From positions 1 to 53,779 of the forward strand of contig JBCDEZ010000003.1 of NCBI GenBank assembly GCA_039179045.1: a stretch of 53,779 nt of DNA, given 5' to 3'. Every line of letters starts with the position of its first letter. Within the stretch, counting starts at the first letter, position 1. Both the position numbers and the translations under genes were made by a program. The stretch is from Chlamydiota bacterium. GTDB lineage: Bacteria; Chlamydiota; Chlamydiia; Chlamydiales; SM23-39. Shown piece by piece: positions 1,801 to 42,495 of this stretch. Under the pieces are notes generated by a model, which did not search any database, had not been told where the DNA came from, and saw only the letters and a program-made list of their open reading frames with translations.

Positions 1801-1950
1801 TTTCCCACAATTTCCCACACAGGAGAAATGGTGCAATAACTCTCTTAGAAGGAAAAATTTACGGTAGATTTTTCGCTGTAAAAATGGGAAAAATCTTGCC
1901 AAGATGCGCCTGCTTGCGTAAGATGTGGTACGAAGTGGGAAAAGCGGGAA
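1801..1950. promoter_or_regulatory. Candidate MraZ-binding repeats upstream of mraZ
   Basis: GTGGT/GTGGG/GCGGG at 1925/1935/1944 (~10-bp period). An opposite-strand pair TTTCCCACAA-TTTCCCACAC lies at 1801-1820. MraZ is known to bind GTGG(G) repeats with a 10-bp period. Confidence 0.6.
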
Positions 1951-1951
1951 A

Positions 1952-2479
1952 ATGCAGTTTTTTAGTGGTTCTTGGAATACAAAATTGGATGAAAAAGGTC
2001 GCTTTGTCCTTCCGAGCGCTCTTCGAGATGGGCTCGTTGAGCAGGGGCGCCTCGAAATTTTCCTAGGCTTGAGCTTAGGAGGATGTTTGGCTATTTACCG
2101 CGAATCTGATGTTGCGAAGATGGTAGAGCGCTTCCGAGCAAAACAGCATCTCGCCCGCTATCAGTCTCTTTTCACTACCTTTTTCTCAAGTTTGCATCGC
2201 GCTCTCCCCGACAGAGTAGGCCGAATTTATCTCCCTCCGTTTCTGCAGAAAGTGGCAAACATCGAGAAAAAAGAGGAGCTTGCGCTAGTTGGTGTGATCG
2301 ATAAAATTGAGATTCTACCTAGAGCAGTTCACGAAGAGCGCATGCGCCACTTTCTAGAAGAAGGGAGGTCCTCTTCTCTTTGTGAGGAATTGTTCTCCCT
2401 TTTGGAGCCAGAAAAACCTTCGAAGGCAGATATGCCTCTTTCGGAGGAAACGCAGGAGCTAGTTGAGGTGCCTGTTTGA
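1952..2479 (+). CDS. mraZ: Division/cell-wall cluster transcriptional repressor MraZ
   Basis: MQFFSGSWNTKLDEKGRFVLP and second repeat DRVGRIYLP...VGVIDKIEI. Directly precedes rsmH. ATG at 1952 is preferred over GTG at 1925. Confidence 0.92.
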   Translation: MQFFSGSWNTKLDEKGRFVLPSALRDGLVEQGRLEIFLGLSLGGCLAIYRESDVAKMVERFRAKQHLARYQSLFTTFFSSLHRALPDRVGRIYLPPFLQKVANIEKKEELALVGVIDKIEILPRAVHEERMRHFLEEGRSSSLCEELFSLLEPEKPSKADMPLSEETQELVEVPV

Positions 2480-3387
2480 GTCTTCTCCATACGCCTGTGC
2501 TGCAAGAGGAGATTTTGCAATACCTCTCTACTAAGGGGCTCCGTACTTTTTGCGATGCTACCTTAGGCAATGGAGGGCACGCTCTTGCTCTTCTCGAAGC
2601 GCATCCAGAAATTGAGATTTACCTAGGATTGGATCAAGACAAGCATGCTCTTGGAATAGCACGAAAACATCTTACGGGGAAAGACAAAAAAATCCATTTT
2701 TTGCACCGGAATTTTCGTCATATTGAGCAGATTGTCCAGGAGAAAGGGTTTGCCCCTTTTGACGGCATTCTTTTCGATTTGGGAGTCTCTTCAATGCAGC
2801 TCGATGAGCAGGGAGAGGGATTCGAGCAGCGGGGGTTTAGCTTTCTGCGCCCAGCTCCCCTTGACATGCGGATGAATCAAGACCAGCCACTCACCGCAGA
2901 GCAGGTAATCAACGACTATTCGGAAAAGCAGCTAGGGGAGATTTTTCGGGAGTTGGGAGAAGAACCTTTTTGGAGATCGATCGCCCGAACCATTCACCAA
3001 GCACGGCAAAAAAAGCGGATCACTACGACTACCGAATTGGTGGATCTGGTGGAGAGAGTAAAAAAAAGGCGCGGAAGACTCCACCCGGCTACTTTGGTAT
3101 TTCAGGCGTTGCGCATTCTTGTCAATGAAGAGCTTATATCTCTCGAAGAGGGCTTGAGAAATGTCATTCCCCTCCTTGCAAAGGGAGGACTGCTTTTTGT
3201 AATCTCTTTCCACAGTTTAGAGGACCGCATTGCAAAACAGGTATTTCGTGCTGAGGCAAAAGTCGACGCCTCCTTGCGCATTCTTACAAAGAAGCCTTTG
3301 ATAGCTACACGTGCAGAAACGCGGAAAAATCCTAGGGCGCGTTCAGCGAAGATGCGCATCTTAGAGCGCTCAGCAGATCACACTTAG
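2476..3387 (+). CDS. rsmH: 16S rRNA m4C1402 methyltransferase RsmH (MraW)
   Basis: Motifs HTPVL, DATLGNGGH, DLGVSSMQLD, PLDMRM, ISFHSLEDRI, NPRARSAKMR. Confidence 0.97.
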   Translation: MSLLHTPVLQEEILQYLSTKGLRTFCDATLGNGGHALALLEAHPEIEIYLGLDQDKHALGIARKHLTGKDKKIHFLHRNFRHIEQIVQEKGFAPFDGILFDLGVSSMQLDEQGEGFEQRGFSFLRPAPLDMRMNQDQPLTAEQVINDYSEKQLGEIFRELGEEPFWRSIARTIHQARQKKRITTTTELVDLVERVKKRRGRLHPATLVFQALRILVNEELISLEEGLRNVIPLLAKGGLLFVISFHSLEDRIAKQVFRAEAKVDASLRILTKKPLIATRAETRKNPRARSAKMRILERSADHT

Positions 3388-3448
3388 CGGAACCTGGGGG
3401 GCCTGAAGGGATCTGCTGCGAGCGCAACGGCAAAAATGGGGACTTCTG

Positions 3449-4897
3449 ATGAAATGCAAAAAGCTGATCCGTGGCTTTCCTATTGCCTTGAAAGGCGCAA
3501 AGGAGGTGGAGATTACGGGCATTTCTGCCGATGCGCGGCATGTTCTACCAGGCAACCTATTTGTTCTGAATAAGGACCATTCTTTCGGTGGAATCGGTAG
3601 CATGGCACATGCGATGCAAAATGGCGCTGCAGCGATTCTTACCGATATTTACGATCCATTCCTTGCCGTTCCCCAGCTTGTAACGCCTTCTTTGGAAAAA
3701 GTGGTACCTTCTTTGGTCGATCGGTACTACGGAAGCCCCTCTAAAAGAGTGCGTGTGTTGGGCATTTTGGGTAGTCAGGCAACTGTAGCCGCGCATCTGC
3801 TGCGACACTGTTTAGAAGAGCTGGGAGAGGCTGTAGGGCTTCTTAGTAGCGTGGAAAAGTGGAGGCAAGGGAGCTATGTCCCAGCAGATCTGTTTGCAGA
3901 TGATCTCATCTCCAACCAAAAGTCTCTAGGGGAGATGTTGGATCAAGGCAAGAAGGTAGCGGTTTTGGAGATGCTTCCCAGAGCTCTCCAGGGGGGAGCC
4001 TTTGCGGAAGTCGATTTGCACGCCACAATTTTTGCGCAGTTCTCTTCTCAAGAGGAAGGGTGCCTACCGCCAGAGGAAATGCTACAGGAAGTCGCACCTC
4101 TTCTTCTAAACAATCATTGCTCGTTTGTGGCACTTAACGAAAACAGTCCCTACATTCCGTTTTGCCGAGAGACCCTTCGCATCCTGCCGAAAACCTACGG
4201 ATTTAGCAGAAGAGCAGAGCTCCAGATGGCAGACATTTCCTTTTCTCAAAAAGGCACCAAGGGGCGTCTAGTCCACCGAGGAAAAAGTTCTCTTTTCTCT
4301 TCTCCTCTGTTGGGAAGGCCCCCTCTTTATGGGATGCTTGCTGCTTTGAGCGCTCTTGTCTCTTGTGGTTATTGTATAGAAGAGATCACTCCTTATTTGG
4401 CTAGTTTTCGCGGTGTGCCAGGGAGGATGCAGAAAGTAGGGCGTACGATCTTTGTCGATGCTGCGCGCACTCCTTCCGCTTTAGAAGAGAGCCTTCTTGC
4501 TCTACGCGCATGCACAAACAAACCCATTGTTCTTGTGTTTGGATCTTTGGGAGGTACTGCTCGAAATAGTCGATTTCATATGGGAAAAATTGCGGACCGG
4601 TACGCCGATTTTACCATTCTTACCAACAACAACCCTGGCGCGGAGGATCCTGCATCGATTGTAGCCGATCTGCAGGCGGGTTTTTCCAGCAATCGGCGGC
4701 AGATTGTTTTGCATCGTAGAGAAGCCATCTACGAAGGAGTGCGAAGAGCGCATGGAAAAGCTCTACTACTCATTGCGGGCAAAGGGCATGAAAAAACCGA
4801 GTCTTGCGCACACACAACGCTCCCGTTTGATGATGTGGAAGTAGCAAAAGAGGCTTTGCGGGTAGTTTCTCAAAAACAGGGCAGAGCGACCCTTTGA
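3449..4897 (+). CDS. murE: MurE-like Mur ligase with degenerate catalytic motifs
   Basis: Three-domain Mur ligase layout (ITGISADAR, YYGSPSK, VPGRMQ, D..TP.AL, EDP..I, IAGKGHE, PFDD). P-loop, DHLDYH and DNPR motifs are all replaced. Confidence 0.85.
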   Translation: MKCKKLIRGFPIALKGAKEVEITGISADARHVLPGNLFVLNKDHSFGGIGSMAHAMQNGAAAILTDIYDPFLAVPQLVTPSLEKVVPSLVDRYYGSPSKRVRVLGILGSQATVAAHLLRHCLEELGEAVGLLSSVEKWRQGSYVPADLFADDLISNQKSLGEMLDQGKKVAVLEMLPRALQGGAFAEVDLHATIFAQFSSQEEGCLPPEEMLQEVAPLLLNNHCSFVALNENSPYIPFCRETLRILPKTYGFSRRAELQMADISFSQKGTKGRLVHRGKSSLFSSPLLGRPPLYGMLAALSALVSCGYCIEEITPYLASFRGVPGRMQKVGRTIFVDAARTPSALEESLLALRACTNKPIVLVFGSLGGTARNSRFHMGKIADRYADFTILTNNNPGAEDPASIVADLQAGFSSNRRQIVLHRREAIYEGVRRAHGKALLLIAGKGHEKTESCAHTTLPFDDVEVAKEALRVVSQKQGRATL

Positions 4898-5012
4898 GCT
4901 CTTGGGAAAAAAAGATTGGAAAGAAAAGAGCGGTCCTTACAATGCGGAAGTAGGTGAGGGTCTAGCATGACAAGGGTCCCCTCTTAGCAAAAATCGAGAT
5001 CATGGAGAAGGG

Positions 5013-6452
5013 ATGACGCAAGCAGATATCGGAATTATTGGCCTGGCCGTCATGGGCAAGAACTTGATCTTGAATATAGCAGATCATGGGTATACCGTCG
5101 CGGCCTTCAACCGGAGTTTGGATAAGGTAGATCGCTTTGCCTCTGGAGAGGCAAAGGGCAAAACCATTCTTTGTGCGCACTCCTTAGAAGAGTTTTTACA
5201 GCTTTTAAAAAGACCGAAGAAGATCATGTTAATGATCAAGGCAGGCGGTGCGGTCGATGCTTTTATCGAGCAGCTCCTTCCCCATTTAGAGCCGGGAGAC
5301 ATCCTCATCGATGGGGGCAATAGTCACTACCCTGATACCCAAAGGCGTTATGAACAGCTCCAAAAAAGAGGACTCTTATTTGTGGGAACGGGTATCTCCG
5401 GAGGAGAAGAAGGTGCCCGGAGAGGGCCTTCGATCATGCCGGGAGGCAATGCTGAGGCATGGCCTCACCTAAAACCTATTTTTCAGTCGATTGCCGCTAA
5501 AAGCGAAGAAGGGGAGCCTTGCTGCGACTGGGTAGGTGAGGGGGGCGCTGGCCATTATGTAAAAATGGTGCACAATGGGATCGAATATGGCGATATGCAG
5601 CTGATTTGTGAGGCGTTCGATCTGATGCATACCGCTCTTCGAAAAGACTATCCTACGCTGCAAAAGATTTTCTCTGAGTGGAATCAAGGAGAACTCGACT
5701 CCTATCTCATCGAAATCACCGGGGATATTCTGCAAAAAAAAGAAGAGGATGGTCGGATGGTATTGGAAAACATACTCGATGTAGCCGGACAAAAAGGTAC
5801 AGGTAAATGGACAGGAATCAATGCTTTAGAAGAGGGGGCGCCGGTTACCCTTATTGCAGAGGCGGTCTTTGCAAGATGCCTGTCTGCTTTGTATGAAGAG
5901 CGGCAACAAGCAGCGGGGCACTATCCTTTTGCCACCCCTCAAGGGGAGATCGATACAGATAAGGTTGCAGACGCTCTGTATGCCGCGAAAATCATTAGCT
6001 ACTCCCAGGGATTCATGCTCATGCGCTTGGCTTCAGAAAAATATGACTGGAATTTACAATATGGCGCCATCGCGCTCATGTGGAGAGGGGGCTGCATCAT
6101 CCGCAGCCGCTTTCTGGGAAAAATTCGTGACGCATACCGGAAAAACCCTGCACTCAAAAACTTGCTACTAGATGAGTTTTTCGTAGGAGAGATGTCCCGC
6201 GTGATCCCCAACTTGCGCGAGGTGGTCGCATTTGGTCTTTTACAAGGGATTGCTCTTCCTTGCTTTTCCGCGGGATTGAGCTTTTTCGATGGGTACCGCA
6301 GAAAGCGGCTCCCTGCGTACCTTCTTCAGGCTTTGCGAGACTATTTTGGAGCGCACACGTACGAAAGGGTGGACAAGAAGAGGGGAGAATTTTTCCACAC
6401 AAAATGGACAGATACCTCGGGGGAGACGAGTTCTTCTTCTTACAATGCTTGA
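5013..6452 (+). CDS. gnd: 6-phosphogluconate dehydrogenase, NADP+-dependent, decarboxylating
   Basis: Motifs GLAVMGKNL, IDGGN, GISGGEEGA, KMVHNGIEYGDMQLI, QKGTGKWT, RDYFGAHTY. Confidence 0.98.
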   Translation: MTQADIGIIGLAVMGKNLILNIADHGYTVAAFNRSLDKVDRFASGEAKGKTILCAHSLEEFLQLLKRPKKIMLMIKAGGAVDAFIEQLLPHLEPGDILIDGGNSHYPDTQRRYEQLQKRGLLFVGTGISGGEEGARRGPSIMPGGNAEAWPHLKPIFQSIAAKSEEGEPCCDWVGEGGAGHYVKMVHNGIEYGDMQLICEAFDLMHTALRKDYPTLQKIFSEWNQGELDSYLIEITGDILQKKEEDGRMVLENILDVAGQKGTGKWTGINALEEGAPVTLIAEAVFARCLSALYEERQQAAGHYPFATPQGEIDTDKVADALYAAKIISYSQGFMLMRLASEKYDWNLQYGAIALMWRGGCIIRSRFLGKIRDAYRKNPALKNLLLDEFFVGEMSRVIPNLREVVAFGLLQGIALPCFSAGLSFFDGYRRKRLPAYLLQALRDYFGAHTYERVDKKRGEFFHTKWTDTSGETSSSSYNA

Positions 6453-6464
6453 AAAGCAAGAACC

Positions 6465-8267
6465 TTAGTCTGCCTTCAATACAGCCATAAAGGCCTCTTG
6501 AGGTATACTTACTTTACCCACTTCGCGCATCTTTTTCTTTCCTTTTTTTTGTTTCTCCCAAAGTTTCTTTTTCCTCGTGATGTCTCCGCCGTAGCACTTT
6601 GCGGTCACGTTTTTTCCCGTAGGGCTCAGGGTTTCACGAGCTACAATTTTCCCTCCGATTGCGGCTTGGATCGGAATTTTGAAGAGCTGTCTTGGGATGA
6701 CTTCCTTCAATTTCTGGCAAAGAGAGCGCCCCTTGGCTTCTGCTTTTGAGCGGTGAATGAGAATAGAAAAAGCGTCGACAGGCTCTTCATTGATCCGAAT
6801 CTCTAGCTTCACGATATCGCTTTTGGCGTAATCGGTTAGTGTGTAATCAAAAGAGCTGTATCCTTTAGTAACCGATTTGAGCTTATCGTTGAAGTCGGTG
6901 ATGATCTCGTTCATAGGGAAGCGGTAAGAGAGAAGAAGCTGTTCTGAAGAGGTGCTCTCTGTCTTTAGAAGGGTTCCTCGCTTGTCCGAGCCTAAGTTCA
7001 TGACCGCTCCCAGATAGTCTTTGGGTACCATAATATGGCAAGCTGCATACGGCTCTTCGACGTAGGAGATTGTAGCGGGATCGGGATAGTGGGCTGGATT
7101 GTCAATCTCTTCTACCGCACCGTTTTGTAGGTGGTAGCGGTAAATTACAGAAGGAGCGCTCGAGATAATATCGAGTGCAAACTCTCGTTGCAACCTCTCA
7201 AAGATGATTTCCAGATGCAGCAGCCCCAGAAAGCCACACCGAAAACCGAAACCCAAAGCAAGAGAGCTTTCTTGCTCTACGTGGAGAGAGGAATCGTTAA
7301 TCTGCAGCTTGAGAAGAGCGTCGCGGAGAGCTTCAAAATCATTGGTATCAATGGGGTAAATTCCAGCAAAGACGACAGGTCGGATGCGCTGGAACCCAGG
7401 AAGGACCTCCTTTGCAGGCTGCTTTTTGTGGGTAAGGGTATCTCCGATCTGCACATCTTCTGTATTTTTGATATTGGCGCAAAGATAGCCCACCTCACCT
7501 GCTCGAAGTGCCTCGACTGACCGTTCTTGTGGGGAGAAAAACCCCGTGTCCAGTACATCGAAGGATTTGTCTGTTTTCATGAGAAGAATCGTATCTTTTT
7601 TCCGTAGTGTACCACTGATAATGCGCACATAGACCATAACGCCCCGGTAAGGATCGTAGTGGGAGTCGAAAATGAGCGCTCGGAGAATCGTATCTTCTAG
7701 GGGATCTGGGGGAGGGATTTCTTGGACGATCCTATCCAAGAGCTCGGAAATATGCCATCCCGTTTTGGCAGATACATGGAGCGCTTCGTCAGCCGGTATT
7801 CCGATAATCTCTTCAATCTCTTTTTGCACCACTTCGGGTCGAGCTGCTGGTAGATCGATCTTGTTGATGACAGGAACGATCTCAAGATCCTTTTCTAACG
7901 CCAGGAAAACATTTGCGAGCGTTTGAGCCTGTACCCCTTGTGCTGCATCGACTACAAGAAGAGCTCCTTCGCAAGCGGCCAGCGAACGGGAAACTTCGTA
8001 TGAAAAATCGACGTGGCCAGGAGTGTCGATCAGATTCATTTGGTAGGTAATGCCATCTTTTTGGTAATACATCCGAACGGGACGTGCTTTGATCGTGATG
8101 CCCCGTTCTTTTTCGAGATCCATATCATCGAGGAGCTGCTCTTGCATCTCTCTTTTTTCGACTGTCGCAGTCTCTTCGAGAAGACGGTCTGCTAAGGTCG
8201 ATTTTCCGTGGTCGATATGAGCAATGATAGAAAAATTGCGGATATGAGCAAGATTATAAGTAAACAT
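6465..8267 (-). CDS. lepA: Translation elongation factor 4 (LepA)
   Basis: Motifs [45 protein letters not shown]. Confidence 0.98.
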
Positions 8268-37387: not shown

Positions 37388-38737
37388 TCAAAATTCTGCG
37401 TGGCCAGGGTACCTTGGAAACGGGATCACGTCGCGAATGTTTTCCATGCCCGTCATCACCTGCAAGAGTCTCTCAAAGCCCATGCCAAAGCCGCTATGGG
37501 GACAAGAGCCATATTTGCGCAAGTCGAGGTACCACCAGTACTGTTCTGGAGAGAGTCCTTGGGCGCATATTTTGCTTTTGAGGATCTCGAGATCATCTTC
37601 TCTTTCTGATCCTCCAATGAGCTCCCCAATACCTGGAACAAGAAGGTCCACAGCACGGACCGTTTTCCCATCGGGGGACTCCTTCATGTAGAAGGCTTTG
37701 ATCTCTTTGGGATAGTTGTAGAGGAAAACAGGGCCTTTGCAAAACTCTTCGGCTAGATACCGTTCGTGTTCTGCTTGCAAATCGCAGCCCCACTCTACGG
37801 GGAAGGAAAACGAATTGGGGGCCTTTTTCAATACTTCAATCGCCTCTGTGTAGGAGAGTCTAGGGAAAGGAATCTCCAAGAATTTAGACAGCTTTTCGAT
37901 GAGCCCCTTTTCGATGAACTGCGCAAAAAAGTCGAGGTCGCGCGTTCCTTTTTCCAATCCAAAGCGGATGAGAAATTTGAGGAACTCTTCGGCAATATCC
38001 ATATTTCTGTCCAAGCGGCAAAATGCCATTTCAGGTTCGATCATCCAAAATTCGGATAGGTGCCTTGAAGTGTGCGAGTTTTCTGCCCGGAATGTAGGGC
38101 CAAAGGTGTAGACTTGGCTCAAGGCAAGAGCGCAAATTTCCGCTTCCAACTGCCCCGAGACGTTGAGATAGCTTTGAGGGCCAAAAAAGTTCTCCTCTCC
38201 TCTCGTAACTCGAAATAGCTCTCCTGCTCCCTCGCAGTCTAGATTTGTAATGATGGGGGTATGCACGTGAACAAAGCCCTTCTCGTGGAAAAAATGGTGC
38301 ACAGCGTAACTCATAAGGCTGCGGACACGCAGGCAAGCGCCTTGCGTATTTGTTCTGGGACGCAGGTGCGCAATCGTGCGCAGATAGGGGAACGAGTGGC
38401 GCTTTTTTTGTAGGGGATAGTCGTTTGGACAGGTCCCTAAGATAAGTAGGCGTGTGGCTTGCAGTTCGACTTCTTGCTTACCCCCAGGGCTTTTGACAAG
38501 CGATCCCTCGATTTCGACAGAGGCTCCTGTGCTGAGATCTTCCAATAGAATAGGGTAGTTTGGAAGAGTTTTGTCTAAGATCACCTGTATCGAATCAAAA
38601 TAGGTACCATCGTTTACCTGCAAAAAGCAAAAGTTTTTCTGGACGCGCACACTCCGAACCCATCCTGTGAGCGTACAGGGGCCCTGCATCCCCTCTTGTT
38701 CTGTAAGTAGTTGTTTGACAGATCGTTTAAGAAGCAT
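37388..38737 (-). CDS. asnS: Asparagine--tRNA ligase
   Basis: Motifs GWVRSVR, YPLQKKRH, HLRPRTN, FGPTFRAENSHTSRHLSEFWMIEPE, PHSGFGMGFER. Confidence 0.97.
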   Translation of the reverse strand: MLLKRSVKQLLTEQEGMQGPCTLTGWVRSVRVQKNFCFLQVNDGTYFDSIQVILDKTLPNYPILLEDLSTGASVEIEGSLVKSPGGKQEVELQATRLLILGTCPNDYPLQKKRHSFPYLRTIAHLRPRTNTQGACLRVRSLMSYAVHHFFHEKGFVHVHTPIITNLDCEGAGELFRVTRGEENFFGPQSYLNVSGQLEAEICALALSQVYTFGPTFRAENSHTSRHLSEFWMIEPEMAFCRLDRNMDIAEEFLKFLIRFGLEKGTRDLDFFAQFIEKGLIEKLSKFLEIPFPRLSYTEAIEVLKKAPNSFSFPVEWGCDLQAEHERYLAEEFCKGPVFLYNYPKEIKAFYMKESPDGKTVRAVDLLVPGIGELIGGSEREDDLEILKSKICAQGLSPEQYWWYLDLRKYGSCPHSGFGMGFERLLQVMTGMENIRDVIPFPRYPGHAEF

Positions 38738-39593
38738 GAGTTATGTACTCTTTGAGTTGGTTGATCTCCTGCTTGTACAAAGCAGGCTCTGGTGTTTCTA
38801 AAATCAGGGGAAGCTGGGAAATATTGGGGTTTGTGACCAAAGCTTCAATCCCACTAAGGCCAATTTCTCCTTTACCAAGAGAGGCGTGGCGGTCTCTTCT
38901 CGAACCGAGCGGTTTTTTTGTATCATTGATGTGAAGTGCGTAGAGGTGCTCGAGTCCTATCTTCTCATCAAAAGTTTTCAACGTTGAAGCAACCGCCCCT
39001 TCTGAAGCAAGGTCGTAGCCTGCTGCGAAGATATGGCATGTATCGATACAAACCCCGATCGGCAACACAGGCAACACGCGCTCCAAGATGTATGCAAGGT
39101 GCTCGAAGCGGTAGCCTACGCTATTGCCTTGACCGGCGGTTGTTTCGAGTAAAAGCCTCGTGGGGCTATTTTCGAGAGCCTGTTCAAAAGAGAGTAGGCT
39201 TTTTACGATTTGCTCCAAGCAGAGCTCTTCATCTTTGCTTGTAGCTGTGCCAGGATGGAAGTTGAGATAGGGGATTTCAAGTAGGCGGCAACGTTCGATT
39301 TCTCCCGCAAAGCTCTGTAGGCTCTTTTCGAGAATTTCCTCTTTTTCCGATCCCAAGTTGATCAGGTAACTATCATGGCTGACGATTGCCTCAATCCCTG
39401 TCTCGTCTCGCGCTTGCTTCCATCGATCTACATCCTCTTCGGGGATAGGTCTGCCGCGCCACTGCTTTTGGTTGCTGGTGAATAGCTGTAGAGCGCTTGC
39501 TCCGATCTCAGCCGCCCTTTCTAAAGCTCGGTAGGCACCTCCGGCAGCGGACATGTGCGCTCCGATATGTAATGTTGGCTTATTTGATGACAT
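38727..39593 (-). CDS. nfo: Endonuclease IV
   Basis: Motifs IGAHMSAAGG, HDSYLINL, NFHPG, LLETTAGQG, CIDTCHIFAAGY, HINDTK, DRH, ILETP. Confidence 0.97.
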   Translation of the reverse strand: MSSNKPTLHIGAHMSAAGGAYRALERAAEIGASALQLFTSNQKQWRGRPIPEEDVDRWKQARDETGIEAIVSHDSYLINLGSEKEEILEKSLQSFAGEIERCRLLEIPYLNFHPGTATSKDEELCLEQIVKSLLSFEQALENSPTRLLLETTAGQGNSVGYRFEHLAYILERVLPVLPIGVCIDTCHIFAAGYDLASEGAVASTLKTFDEKIGLEHLYALHINDTKKPLGSRRDRHASLGKGEIGLSGIEALVTNPNISQLPLILETPEPALYKQEINQLKEYITHAS

Positions 39594-39673
39594 GATTGTA
39601 GGGAATCTCTTAACTAGAATATTCCTCCTAGTTTAAAGAATTAGTCGATTCTGAGCAAATTCCCGTTTTGGAT

Positions 39674-39915
39674 GGGGCGATGAAAACTGTGGGAAACTAG
39701 CCGCTTTAGCATTTCTCCAGTAATGGTGCTATAAACGATCGGCTCTACACATTCCAAGAGCAATCATATTCTTGTCGTTTTGCACAGTTCCACCACAAAG
39801 ATACACGGTTGAGTCGGGATGGAAGAACTTGCTGGTGGGCGGTTGCAATTTCTCCGAAGCCAATCGGCAATCCTTTTCCCTTGGGGACCTTGTAATCCAG
39901 TTGACCTGGGTGATT
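39674..39915 (-). pseudogene. ISKra4/ISLre2-type transposase C-terminal remnant
   Basis: Minus strand reads NHPGQLDYKVPKGKGLPIGFGEIATAHQQVLPSRLNRVSLWW, then after a frameshift NDKNMIALGMCRA. This resembles the GLPIGSGEIESAH...RLK..GAWW...MLALR..RAN motif. Confidence 0.65.
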
Positions 39916-39916
39916 G

Positions 39917-40096
39917 CATACCCATCTTGACTGAAGAATTGCGTAAAGAAATTTTTGCATAGGCAAAAAGTGGGAGTTTTGGGAGAGTTTATCTCCACCG
40001 AGTCCAGAGCTTTTCCATGAACTGAAGAAACAAATCACAAACAGCTCTTCTCTCTATTTTTCCGCTTAACCCGATTCTTCAAATGAAACGGGTATA
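39917..40096 (+). mobile_element. IS630-derived MITE (complete, 180 bp)
   Basis: Imperfect terminal IRs (C)ATACCCATCTTGACTGAAGAATT ... GATTCTTCAAATGAAACGGGTATA. Reverse-complement match to 41501-41679. Flanks are TTG and CAA. Confidence 0.9.
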
Positions 40097-40579
40097 CAAA
40101 GACAATTTGGGGATGGATGAAAAAGGACGTGTGTAAAACAATCCGCACGAACCCTGGTAGGCAGAGAATCCACTTTTCTGGTGCTTTGGATATCAACAAG
40201 CATAGAGTCTTGACGCAAGAAGATACGACGCTGTATGCTGAGTCTACGCAAGAGTTATCTATTTTCTGACAATACGTGTTACTATGAAAATCGATTGGTT
40301 CAAGACTATTGAAAATACTCTAGAGTTGAACTCCGTTTTTTACCTCCATATAGCCCGCATCTGAATCCCATGGAGCGGGTCTGGAAATGTAGGAATGAGA
40401 ACGTGTTGTGGAATCAATATTACAAAAAAGTTTCTGCGTGCAAACACGGGGTGATGGGATTTTTAGAGAGTTTGTCCTCGCCCCGTACAGGAATCTTGCA
40501 CCAACTAAAGAAGCGTATCATAAATCGCTTTCATCTCTATTCTTCTGTATCACCCAATTCTTCAATCCAAGTTAGTTAG
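40096..40579 (+). pseudogene. IS630 transposase 3' half, decayed, with degenerate right end
   Basis: Reads GWMKK...TNPGRQRIHFSGALD...QEDTTLYAEST / YLFSDN..YY...*...LRFLPPYSPHLNPMERVWK (40340-40387)...GFLESL. Has a frameshift/deletion and an in-frame TGA at 40310. Confidence 0.9.
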
Positions 40580-41342
40580 TCCGTAAGATCGGGGAAAGGC
40601 TAACAGCCTGTTTCTGGGAAAGGTTTGGAGTTGGTTTAAATTCTGCCACTTTCCAAAATCGGTCTAGGAATTGCTTATCCAAGTGAGGCTCACTGTTAAT
40701 TTTAAAAGGGGAAATCACCTGAGTGTTAGAAGTGAAAAAGAGAGTAAATGATGATACGGGGTTCAGTTTTATATTGGTTGTCTTTAGCGGATCGTGCGTC
40801 ATATATTGAGCAATCACAAAAGAGTTGTCGAGAACGTCTTCCATTTGTTTTATGCTGTTCTTGATTGCAACTACCCGCTTAGCAATGTGTTCGGAAAGGT
40901 CTAAACTACTTGCGAATTTCATCCAGTAAAAACCGAATCCAATAATGGAAAAGAAAAAGATAGATAAAGGCACGTGAGGCATGACATGGAAAAGAAGACT
41001 GAGCACAAAAACAGACACCATTAGGACAACACCAGTTTTTATCCCAAGCTCTCTTGCTTCTTTATCGAAAAAAGCTTGCGTATCATCCAAAGCTTTCAAC
41101 AAGGAACGATGAACAAGAAAGCCAGTTACATGAGCTTTTGCTGTCTCTTGGAAAAGTTTTCGCTTTTCGGGCGTAAGGGACTGTTTATAAAATGTCCCAG
41201 GAATCTCTGAAATTTCAAAGGGCAATCCAGTTAAGACAGTCGCCTTGCTTGATTGTAAACCCCCTAGATGAAAGCAGGAAGTAAAGTTTGTGTCCTGAAC
41301 GTATGCCAGGGAATGACAAGAGATGAAAACATTGAGGTTCAT
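40572..41342 (-). CDS. Orphan protein with bilobed hydrophobic domain, candidate inclusion membrane (Inc-like) protein
   Basis: 256 aa, AT-rich. ~40-aa two-lobed hydrophobic stretch (GVVLMVSVFVLSLLFHVMPHVPLSIFFFSIIGFGFYWM) followed by a predicted amphipathic helix. No signal peptide. GGAG RBS present. Confidence 0.7.
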   Translation of the reverse strand: MNLNVFISCHSLAYVQDTNFTSCFHLGGLQSSKATVLTGLPFEISEIPGTFYKQSLTPEKRKLFQETAKAHVTGFLVHRSLLKALDDTQAFFDKEARELGIKTGVVLMVSVFVLSLLFHVMPHVPLSIFFFSIIGFGFYWMKFASSLDLSEHIAKRVVAIKNSIKQMEDVLDNSFVIAQYMTHDPLKTTNIKLNPVSSFTLFFTSNTQVISPFKINSEPHLDKQFLDRFWKVAEFKPTPNLSQKQAVSLSPILRTN

Positions 41343-41500
41343 ACAGTACTCCTAGGTGAGAAGAATGCAATCATTAAAAAACTTTAACAAAAGTCCAAAC
41401 TATTTTACTTCAAAATAGCTCTTTTTGTCAGGATATTTTTTCATAATTGCGATACTGTTTGGTGAAAAACTTTCTAAGCATCTCTAATAAAAGAGGTATT

Positions 41501-41679
41501 TATACCCGTTTCACTTGAAGAATTGGGTTAAGCGAAGAAATAGAGATAGAAGCTATTTGTGATTTGTTTCTTCAGTTCGTAGAAAAGCTCTGAACTCGGT
41601 GTGGATACACTCTTCCAAAACTCCACCTTTTTGCCTATGCAAGAATTTCTTTACGCAGATCTTCAGCAAGATGGGTATA
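41501..41679 (-). mobile_element. IS630-derived MITE (complete, 179 bp)
   Basis: TATACCCGTTTCACTTGAAGAATT ... CTTCAGCAAGATGGGTATA, with TA at both ends. Inverted relative to the copy at 39917. Confidence 0.9.
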
Positions 41680-41732
41680 CAAGAATGATCAAGGCATTCA
41701 ACGCCCCTTTTCATCTTTTCCAGCGTAAGCTT

Positions 41733-42350
41733 TTATCCTGTGTGCGCTAAGAATTCGCAGACGAGAGAAACATTGATAGGAAGAGGTAGAGATACGCTCT
41801 CATATGCGGGCACTTCTTGAAGAGTCCCTGTGAACTGATCAGACAGGTCAAGGTACTCGGGAAGGTCCAAAGAAGTATTTTGTACTGCTACTTGGATAGC
41901 TTTCACGTTTTGTGAAGATTTTTTTACAGAAATTGTCATGCCAGGCTTTACTTGAAAAGAGCGTCGATCCACTTTCTTGCCGTTTACAAGGATGTGTCCG
42001 TGGGACACGAGCTGTTGCGCAGCAAAGATGGTAGCACCGAAGCGAAGTCTGTAGACGATGTTGTCCAGGCGCGACTCCAACAGAGCTAAAAAAGTGTGCG
42101 AGGTATTCCCAGGCTTTCTCTCTGCATCGTTATAGGCGCGGATGAGCTGCTTTTGACTCAGCATCCCGTAGACAGCGCGCAACTTTTGCTTTTCTTCAAG
42201 CTGGGTGCCGTAGTCTGATTTTTTCTTCCGTTTGGCTCCATGCATTCCAGGAGGATTGGGCTTGTGCAACAAGGGGCTGCGAGATTTTCCAAAAATATTT
42301 ACTCCAAATTTTCTGGCGATCCGATTCTTAGGACCTCTGTATCTAGCCAT
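41733..42350 (-). CDS. rpsD: 30S ribosomal protein S4
   Basis: Motifs MARYRGPK, PPGMHG, SDYGTQLEEKQK, LESRLDNIVYR, QLVSHGHI. GGAG RBS before ATG at 42350. Confidence 0.98.
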   Translation of the reverse strand: MARYRGPKNRIARKFGVNIFGKSRSPLLHKPNPPGMHGAKRKKKSDYGTQLEEKQKLRAVYGMLSQKQLIRAYNDAERKPGNTSHTFLALLESRLDNIVYRLRFGATIFAAQQLVSHGHILVNGKKVDRRSFQVKPGMTISVKKSSQNVKAIQVAVQNTSLDLPEYLDLSDQFTGTLQEVPAYESVSLPLPINVSLVCEFLAHTG

Positions 42351-42495
42351 TTTCTCTCCTATTGAGGCGATTTCTTCATCAATCATAGGAAAACGCCCCT
42401 TTTTCGAGCAAGATGTATATTCTCTTGTTGCAGCCCTTTTCCAAGATGCCTAAACTGGTGGGGAATCTAGTTACATTTTAGCGAGTTGAAGTTTC

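Follow-up and report, generated by a model that had tools for sequence, protein, structure and literature searches.

What keeps the gene for a peptidoglycan ligase open when its catalytic motifs and the pathway around it are gone? The question is raised by a gene on a contig of 53,779 nucleotides (JBCDEZ010000003.1, assembly GCA_039179045.1) from a bacterium of the Chlamydiota; this whole stretch of analysed DNA is referred to as the window. The gene, which we call murE', occupies positions 3449..4897 (+), stop codon included, and encodes a 482-residue protein descended from MurE. The original prediction, made from the letters alone, had read it as a catalytically dead protein that selection preserves for a feature besides its chemistry, and a comparison of two strains now supports that reading. 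Four points are established: murE' is orthologous to MurE, its catalytic residues are lost, the pathway has been lost too, and selection has acted at the amino-acid level after catalytic death. We consider it likely, though not beyond reasonable doubt, that murE' is a pseudoenzyme: a vertically inherited MurE whose ligase sites are destroyed, in a lineage in which the synthesis of peptidoglycan and of lipid II has been lost, with the whole three-domain protein under purifying selection.

The reading frame begins with ATG, runs through 482 codons without an internal stop and is preceded by a Shine-Dalgarno-like word, GGGGA (3438-3442), 6 nucleotides before the start codon, so that the intact frame first proposed for this position is confirmed by both the open reading frame and its translation. 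Pfam recognizes Mur_ligase_C (67.7 bits) and Mur_ligase_M (33.8 bits), while the N-terminal Mur_ligase domain scores 15.7 bits, under its cut-off of 21. The best matches among NCBIfam models are those of MurE, although murE' falls below the cut-offs of both TIGR01085 (245.8 bits vs 257.3) and NF001126 (246.2 bits vs 373); the MurE of a genome of the same genus (G001) reaches 501.1 and 540.6 bits, respectively. The nearest proteins are chlamydial MurE from sources that include Chlamydiota, Rhabdochlamydia, Parachlamydiaceae and Simkania, the closest being 44% identical. A phylogeny of 40 chlamydial MurE places the murE' protein (P0001) as sister to P0002 with an SH-aLRT support of 100%, and P0002 is identical to the G001 MurE protein at 472 of 474 residues. 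The locus also matches that of murE in G001, lying 3' of mraZ-rsmH and 5' of gnd. Because it sits at the ancestral locus and is sister to the MurE of its own genus, murE' is an orthologue rather than a paralogue. The source genome (G000; 1.32 Mb in 79 contigs, 88% complete, the window being contig C3) has a single MurE-like place, and the search for a second, intact murE that had been proposed found none in it. Its sole other gene of the Mur superfamily is an intact folC encoding a normal FolC (262 bits, over the cut-off).

Could this protein still work as a ligase? In an alignment with 13 chlamydial MurE, the P-loop GITGTNGKTT reads GILGSQA-TV in murE'; this remnant (GILGSQATVA, 3761..3790, +) has its lysine column deleted, and the P-loop lysine is therefore absent. 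TTxD has turned into FAD, EVSSH into EMLPR, TNLxxDHLDYH into AQFSSQEEGCL, DFAHT into DAART and GCGGNRD into GSLGGTAR. The DAP-specificity motif DNPR (DAP, diaminopimelate) is replaced by NNPG through D394N and R397G (4628..4639, +), leaving no DNPR for meso-DAP. PGR, EDP, AGKGHE and PFDD are retained. All of the motif changes and kept landmarks that had been listed at the outset thus recur in the alignment, at the coordinates first given for them, and the alignment adds further losses: the carbamylated lysine that Mur ligases carry (K216A), the asparagines of GRFNxYN (N292P, N295G) and two residues of QxR (Q182G, R184A). Among the residues for Mg/ATP and the acyl phosphate, the replacements are K216A, H202E, D204G, Y205C, H206L, N292P and N295G; among the contacts to UDP-MurNAc-dipeptide, they are S29A, T149F, T150A, S177P, H178R, Q182G and R184A. 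The statement that every catalytic motif had been erased holds for the motifs it named but goes slightly too far for the pocket as a whole, where E174, R326, D337, R375, N395 and the GKGHE loop survive. The residue numbers given for MurE of E. coli, S. aureus and M. tuberculosis should fall on these motifs. In the excerpts of PMC9434261 that treat MurE residues for ATP, UDP-MurNAc and DAP binding, the P-loop TGTxGKT and the role of DNPR, the residue list covers the same motifs as those lost in murE'. Lacking the P-loop lysine as well as its Mg/ATP residues and substrate contacts, murE' is not credible as a ligase; judged by its residues, with the sites for ATP, Mg, UDP-MurNAc-peptide and DAP destroyed, it cannot be expected to work as one. 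In this it resembles a pseudoenzyme, an enzyme homologue without the residues that catalysis requires.

The pathway in which a MurE would act has gone as well. Family searches were run on G000 and four relatives: murF, the transpeptidase domain of penicillin-binding proteins (PBP2, PBP3), murA, murB, FtsW/RodA and murJ were found in all four relatives and none of them in G000. A tblastn search of G000 with NCBIfam-named G001 proteins likewise found no murC/ddl, murG, ftsW, LysM/NlpD-like protein, murD, mraY or murF. Thus MurC and MurD, which make the substrate, and MurF and MraY, which use the product, are absent from the G000 searches and all present in G001. In G001 the gene order is mraZ-rsmH-ftsL-ftsI-murE-amiA-gnd. 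In the window, a gap of 61 nucleotides (3388..3448) between rsmH and murE' stands where G001 has ftsL and ftsI (encoding PBP3), and a gap of 115 nucleotides (4898..5012) between murE' and gnd where it has amiA. A PBP2 gene of 3264 nucleotides in G001 is replaced by flanks 379 nucleotides apart (G000:C23:4345-4723) and an 852-nucleotide murB by flanks 175 nucleotides apart (G000:C1:5875-6049), neither with a detectable remnant. No remnant of PBP2, FtsI, FtsL or AmiA was found at E<=0.01 anywhere in G000, the deletion scars included. All four losses (ftsL-ftsI, amiA, PBP2, murB) are bridged by single G000 contigs and, because their flanks sit on one contig, represent deletions instead of gaps in the assembly. 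The place of murJ also lies inside the window, at 39594-41732, between orthologues at 38727-39593 and 41733-42386 (the flanks map to 38733-39596 and 41736-42374). This interval of 2.1 kb is unrelated sequence of lower GC content (40%) with an open reading frame of 256 codons at 40572-41342 (-), and no MurJ remnant was detected in it (best E value 1.3).

Such loss is rare in the order, where mraY was found in 192 of the 200 genomes scored and in 150 of the 152 that are at least 90% complete. According to a reconstruction described in PMC9816063, the ancestor of the chlamydiae had murACDEFGJ, mreB and mraY. The original prediction had spoken of a lineage reduced in peptidoglycan; reduction there is, yet the term is too mild, as the pathway is otherwise gone by family searches and tblastn alike. 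Its gene content identifies the G000 lineage as peptidoglycan-less rather than peptidoglycan-reduced, with lipid II synthesis lost too. We asked whether other mraY-negative genomes likewise carry an orphaned, inactive MurE, and rejected these candidates: G118, G108 and G173 have a full-scoring MurE and probably suffer from assembly gaps, and the match in G107 is only a cross-hit. A genome from another family of the order (G037; 0.8 Mb, 90% complete) has neither mraY nor a MurE match and may represent an independent peptidoglycan-less chlamydial lineage which, unlike G000, kept no murE.

If murE' had simply been left to decay with its pathway, its losses should be spread over the protein, and they are not. 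In an alignment of 75 sequences, 91 columns reach a conservation of 95% or more across the 74 other MurE, and P0001 keeps 55 of these columns. The N-terminal domain (residues 1-100; 3449..3748, +) keeps 14 of 17 and is barely accelerated and strongly constrained; the middle, ATP-binding domain (residues 101-320; 3749..4408, +), from which catalytic motifs are lost, keeps 11 of 36; and the C-terminal domain (residues 321-482; 4409..4894, +), in which GCGGNRD and DNPR are degraded, keeps 30 of 38. The concentration of losses in the middle domain, relative to 44 of 55 columns kept in the other two, is significant (Fisher p=3e-6). Identity to other MurE follows the same pattern, P0001 standing at 0.45, 0.27 and 0.39 over the N-terminal, middle and C-terminal domains and the active P0002 at 0.47, 0.45 and 0.49. 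So do the end branches of the tree, with P0001 at 0.55, 1.81 and 1.06 versus 0.40, 0.24 and 0.27 for P0002 (1.27 versus 0.35 over the whole protein). The site-conservation analysis proposed beforehand has thus revealed a loss that is non-random by domain, which argues against a pseudogene because a pseudogene would decay evenly.

The open frame itself is hard to reconcile with neutrality. Neutral evolution was simulated from the G001 coding sequence under the base composition of G000, with kappa set to 1, 2 or 4. The dose that matches the 60% retention, at 147 conserved columns, was about 0.25 substitutions per nucleotide; it produced on average 8.7-10.7 stop codons, and none of 200 runs stayed stop-free at any kappa. 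Simulating the middle domain alone (220 codons, 40% retention) gave a mean of 6.1-7.2 stops, with 2/200 and 0/200 runs stop-free at the bracketing doses. Moreover, murE' kept its ancestral length while its neighbours on both sides and at least 10 other peptidoglycan genes were removed without detectable trace. These patterns indicate that murE' is not a drifting or decaying pseudogene. A candidate for a true-pseudogene contrast, the murE of G016 (G016:C5:506700-508150, L084; 6 contigs, 63% complete), was set aside: it has three frame changes with all motifs intact, more likely the result of long-read indel errors.

Direct evidence for selection comes from a second strain. DNA near-identical to the window occurs in marine metagenome runs, and one metagenome contig of 3.5 kb (L072) is colinear with window positions 3133-6671 at 95.1% nucleotide identity. 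It has the order rsmH-murE'-gnd, again without ftsI or amiA, and its murE' is intact, 483 residues long, with the same dead motifs and a single in-frame codon indel. Between G000 and L072, murE' differs at 24 nonsynonymous and 34 synonymous codons, giving a dN/dS (omega) of 0.21 by NG86 and 0.27 by maximum likelihood (binomial test against neutrality, p=2.6e-8). Omega is 0.07-0.10 in the N-terminal domain (3 nonsynonymous, 10 synonymous codons), where selection is strongest, and 0.22-0.27 in the middle domain (p=1e-4; 10 nonsynonymous, 15 synonymous codons). On the same contig gnd has an omega of 0.10-0.14 (13 nonsynonymous, 34 synonymous codons), which does not differ significantly from that of murE' (Fisher p=0.16), and the rsmH fragment 0.03-0.04 (1 nonsynonymous, 10 synonymous codons). 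Since both strains carry the dead motifs, this selection acted after catalytic death. Where the original prediction would have been undone by a dN/dS near 1 with disrupted orthologues, the opposite was seen, and purifying selection after the loss of catalysis, a mark of a pseudoenzyme, is found on this one strain pair.

The differences in L072 are not assembly noise, because they recur in another run: contig pieces of that run differ at 13, 24 and 9 places over these three spans, as L072 does, and among the gnd variant places listed for it 24 of 24 also differ in L072. This comparison is one of difference counts per piece, in which the run and L072 are not distinguishable as independent samples. 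Other sources of dN/dS were of no use. Synonymous sites are saturated between G000 and G001 (third-position difference 0.56-0.68, NG86 dS undefined), so that this pair is unusable, and no near-identical short protein fragments were found that could serve as strain variants, the closest of 90 matches at E<=1e-10 being 49% identical. We also considered that the open frame merely protects downstream transcription; this polarity-only model predicts an omega near 1 and was rejected because the measured omega is well under 1.

The structure prediction that had been suggested returned a three-domain Mur ligase fold. The AlphaFold2 model of murE', built from a 60-row alignment, has a predicted local distance difference test score (pLDDT) of 91.1 and a predicted TM score (pTM) of 0.89, with confidence dipping at residues 41-50, 141-150 and 201-220. 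In a Foldseek search with the model, the best match was the plant plastid protein PAP11 (TMq 0.92), and MurE of M. tuberculosis, S. aureus, E. coli and T. maritima matched with TMq 0.87-0.89. Together with its orthologous descent, the modelled fold would place murE' among the three-domain Mur ligases.

A second gene appears to point the same way as murE'. The dapF orthologue of G000 (G000:C17, L068:1520-2362, +) has 280 codons, the same length as in G001, and is 32% identical to it. GNDF has become GSDL, the region of the second catalytic cysteine is lost, and the Pfam DAP-epimerase score is 18 bits versus 64-71 in relatives. However, the frame is open, a clade-specific C-terminal tail is conserved and the synteny glyA-clpP-dapF-ald is kept. 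From its sequence features, dapF is best described as a second dead-but-open relic of peptidoglycan synthesis.

What murE' is kept for would then have to lie outside catalysis, and it probably does a non-enzymatic job, acting by binding rather than by chemistry. The mechanism that we favour, with low confidence, is a structural partnership in the MreB-based apparatus of morphogenesis and division, through a scaffolding role that would already have been present in active MurE and would have outlived the enzyme. MreB is the one surviving morphogenetic partner and is under very strong constraint: mreB is intact in G000 (G000:C37:4583-5569; L075:563-1660, -; 529 bits), with a product 90% identical to that of G001. 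The introduction of PMC3187750 describes MreB as thought to recruit MurB, MurC, MurE and MurF. Complex prediction for murE' and MreB gave a median score of 0.35 (runs 0.01, 0.35 and 0.42), with 0.00 for the best of three controls; at least 41% of contacts are common to the runs, and the partner pLDDT is at least 77. The alignments were custom-made, that of MreB having 4 rows only. In the calibration, 58 of 80 solved complexes attained the passing mark, as did 2 of 110 mismatched pairs, and the passing scores of 0.60 or less comprised only 7 of the 80 solved complexes and both passing mismatches. Within the pseudoenzyme explanation we hold a role as a structural partner of MreB to be a tentative possibility, well short of an even chance. 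The wider proposition, that Mur ligases have a second, structural and catalysis-independent role in the MreB-organized machinery which alone keeps MurE, and perhaps DapF, alive here, seems unlikely to us.

Several observations weigh against a pseudoenzyme with a retained role, and most of them would suit a relic on its way out, a gene that lost its function with peptidoglycan, gained no new one, and remains open, with an omega under 1, only because large amounts of a truncated or misfolded protein would do harm or because its deletion is pending. In L072 a further five positions of the C-terminal domain that had been invariant are changed (L345F, F364L, G368V, N395T, I442V), all in old active-site loops, so that erosion continues, and L072 scores lower than G000 against TIGR01085 (228.7 vs 245.8 bits). 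Omega in the C-terminal domain is 0.39-0.49 with p=0.04 only (11 nonsynonymous, 9 synonymous codons), and that of the whole gene is about twice that of gnd. Replacements at conserved sites, tried as a test of fold retention, showed no significant excess of conservative changes over random ones (mean BLOSUM62 -0.39 vs -0.70 +/- 0.21 simulated). With dapF also dead but open, slow decay could be general here. Beyond what such a relic would explain, the AlphaFold2 model shows fold compatibility and not folding, because its alignment consists of active homologues; a weak pass such as that with MreB is, by the calibration, more often wrong than right unless the pairing was likely beforehand; no RNA run among the sequencing runs searched carries the murE' stretch; and only one pair of strains is usable for dN/dS, the case as a whole resting on sequence data from one lineage and two strains. 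The relic nevertheless appears improbable to us. It fits poorly with an overall omega of 0.21-0.27 and an N-terminal omega of 0.07-0.10, within the range of the housekeeping neighbour, and with an N-terminal domain that is as near to other MurE as that of the active orthologue. Nor does it account for a full-length murE' where at least 12 other peptidoglycan genes, both immediate neighbours included, are gone without trace, for the 0/200 neutral simulations that remained stop-free, or for the single indel between the strains being in frame.

That murE' still binds a ligand or catalyses an altered reaction, for example as a sensor of nucleotide sugars or muropeptides or as a ligase using a different site, we regard as quite improbable. 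The kept architecture and length, the surviving E174, R326, D337, R375, N395 and GKGHE, and purifying selection on all three domains are what it would lead one to expect. Set against them are the deleted P-loop lysine and the replacement of the carbamylated lysine, the DHxDYH histidines, the NTT/SSH/QxR contacts and the DNPR arginine; moreover, what remains of the pocket is being lost in L072 (G368V, N395T, F364L), and the enzymes that make the MurE substrate were not found in G000. Least probable of all, to a degree that we scarcely entertain, is an artefact in which the peptidoglycan genes sit on unassembled or mis-binned contigs and murE' is a redundant paralogue. The genome is 88% complete in 79 contigs, and the junction of the dcw cluster falls at the ends of contigs C79 and C16, so that the large deletion there is not directly visible. 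However, single contigs span four of the deletions, and the place of murJ in the window is taken up by other sequence. L072, independently, has the order rsmH-murE'-gnd with neither ftsI nor amiA. An artefact would also require that at least 13 genes, spread over 8 or more separate loci, had been missed, and murE' occupies the ancestral locus as an orthologue and not an extra copy. The preferred explanation thus remains a pseudoenzyme kept by purifying selection.

Directly upstream of murE' lies the surviving head of the dcw cluster (1925..3387, +), consisting of mraZ (1925-2479, +; TIGR00242, 51.7 bits, below the cut-off) and rsmH (2476-3387, +; TIGR00006, 296 bits). No terminator-like site was found between rsmH and murE', and a promoter and terminator scan gave the same result as shuffled sequences. 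L072 differs from the window by a 9-codon in-frame deletion in gnd (window 5162-5192) and by a 1-nucleotide deletion in the murE'-gnd spacer (window 4977) that is also present in run X3; in one low-depth contig of run X2, 2 nucleotides are absent from rsmH at window position 3060, possibly an error. An NTP/NDP exchange transporter (677 bits) is also encoded in the window.

To our knowledge chlamydiae have no FtsZ, and a peptidoglycan ring organized by MreB is thought to be needed for their division. MreB is intact here though the peptidoglycan genes that it normally organizes are gone, which makes the mode of division of this organism a puzzle. Thus, murE' and MreB in a peptidoglycan-less chlamydia bear on what lipid II and peptidoglycan are needed for in chlamydiae, and murE' also on whether Mur enzymes scaffold apart from their chemistry. 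If the MreB-scaffold interpretation were true, the organism would be a natural separation-of-function mutant, and chlamydial division could run on MreB without peptidoglycan. The known case of a Mur ligase in a non-ligase role is a plant polymerase subunit, PAP11, and murE' would be a bacterial example. Within the abstracts and passages available to the literature search, no Mur-ligase pseudoenzyme and no peptidoglycan-less chlamydia was reported; the supplementary gene tables of PMC9816063 and PMC5814848 could already list metagenome-assembled genomes of the latter kind.

How does murE' compare with known systems? With bacterial MurE (TIGR01085; Chlamydia trachomatis MurE, E. coli 1E8C) it shares locus, fold, length and descent; it differs in scoring below the family cut-off, in having lost the residues for ATP, Mg, UDP-MurNAc-peptide and DAP, and in the absence of pathway enzymes from the searches of its genome. 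A likeness of another kind is offered by intracellular bacteria of the Ehrlichia type, which lack peptidoglycan and, like G000, combine the loss of the wall pathway with odd leftovers. According to the parts of PMC5814848 that bear on this, MurE is present in all peptidoglycan-positive and peptidoglycan-intermediate intracellular species studied and absent in Ehrlichia, which retains a complete DAP pathway without it. The leftovers of Ehrlichia are active enzymes with murE missing, whereas the leftover of G000 is murE itself, inactive.

The nearest parallel in concept is PAP11, the subunit of the plastid-encoded RNA polymerase (8R5O, 8R6S, 8XZV), which like murE' is a MurE homologue that has outlasted its pathway. 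The two match in sequence at 2.5e-39, the 482 residues of murE' aligning to residues 249-689 of a 768-residue chain. However, PAP11 retains the P-loop in the alignment, whereas murE' has lost its lysine, and seed-plant MurE mostly keeps DNPR, as stated in portions of PMC9434261. PAP11 also has a long N-terminal extension, and in the relevant sections of PMC11561172 it contacts the beta' clamp-toe and PAP1 via two C-terminal folds that the E. coli enzyme does not have; murE' has the length of a bacterial MurE and no additions and thus does not belong with PAP11. Because murE' lacks such additions and has lost its motifs, the mechanism of PAP11 is not transferable to it. The analogy to plastid MurE drawn in the original prediction therefore stands for the concept of an enzyme kept after its pathway was lost, but not for the mechanism. 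In its general features murE' resembles pseudoenzymes at large, being without catalytic residues, with the fold kept and an omega well below 1 after the loss; pseudoenzymes generally serve as scaffolds or regulators, and murE' may do so too.

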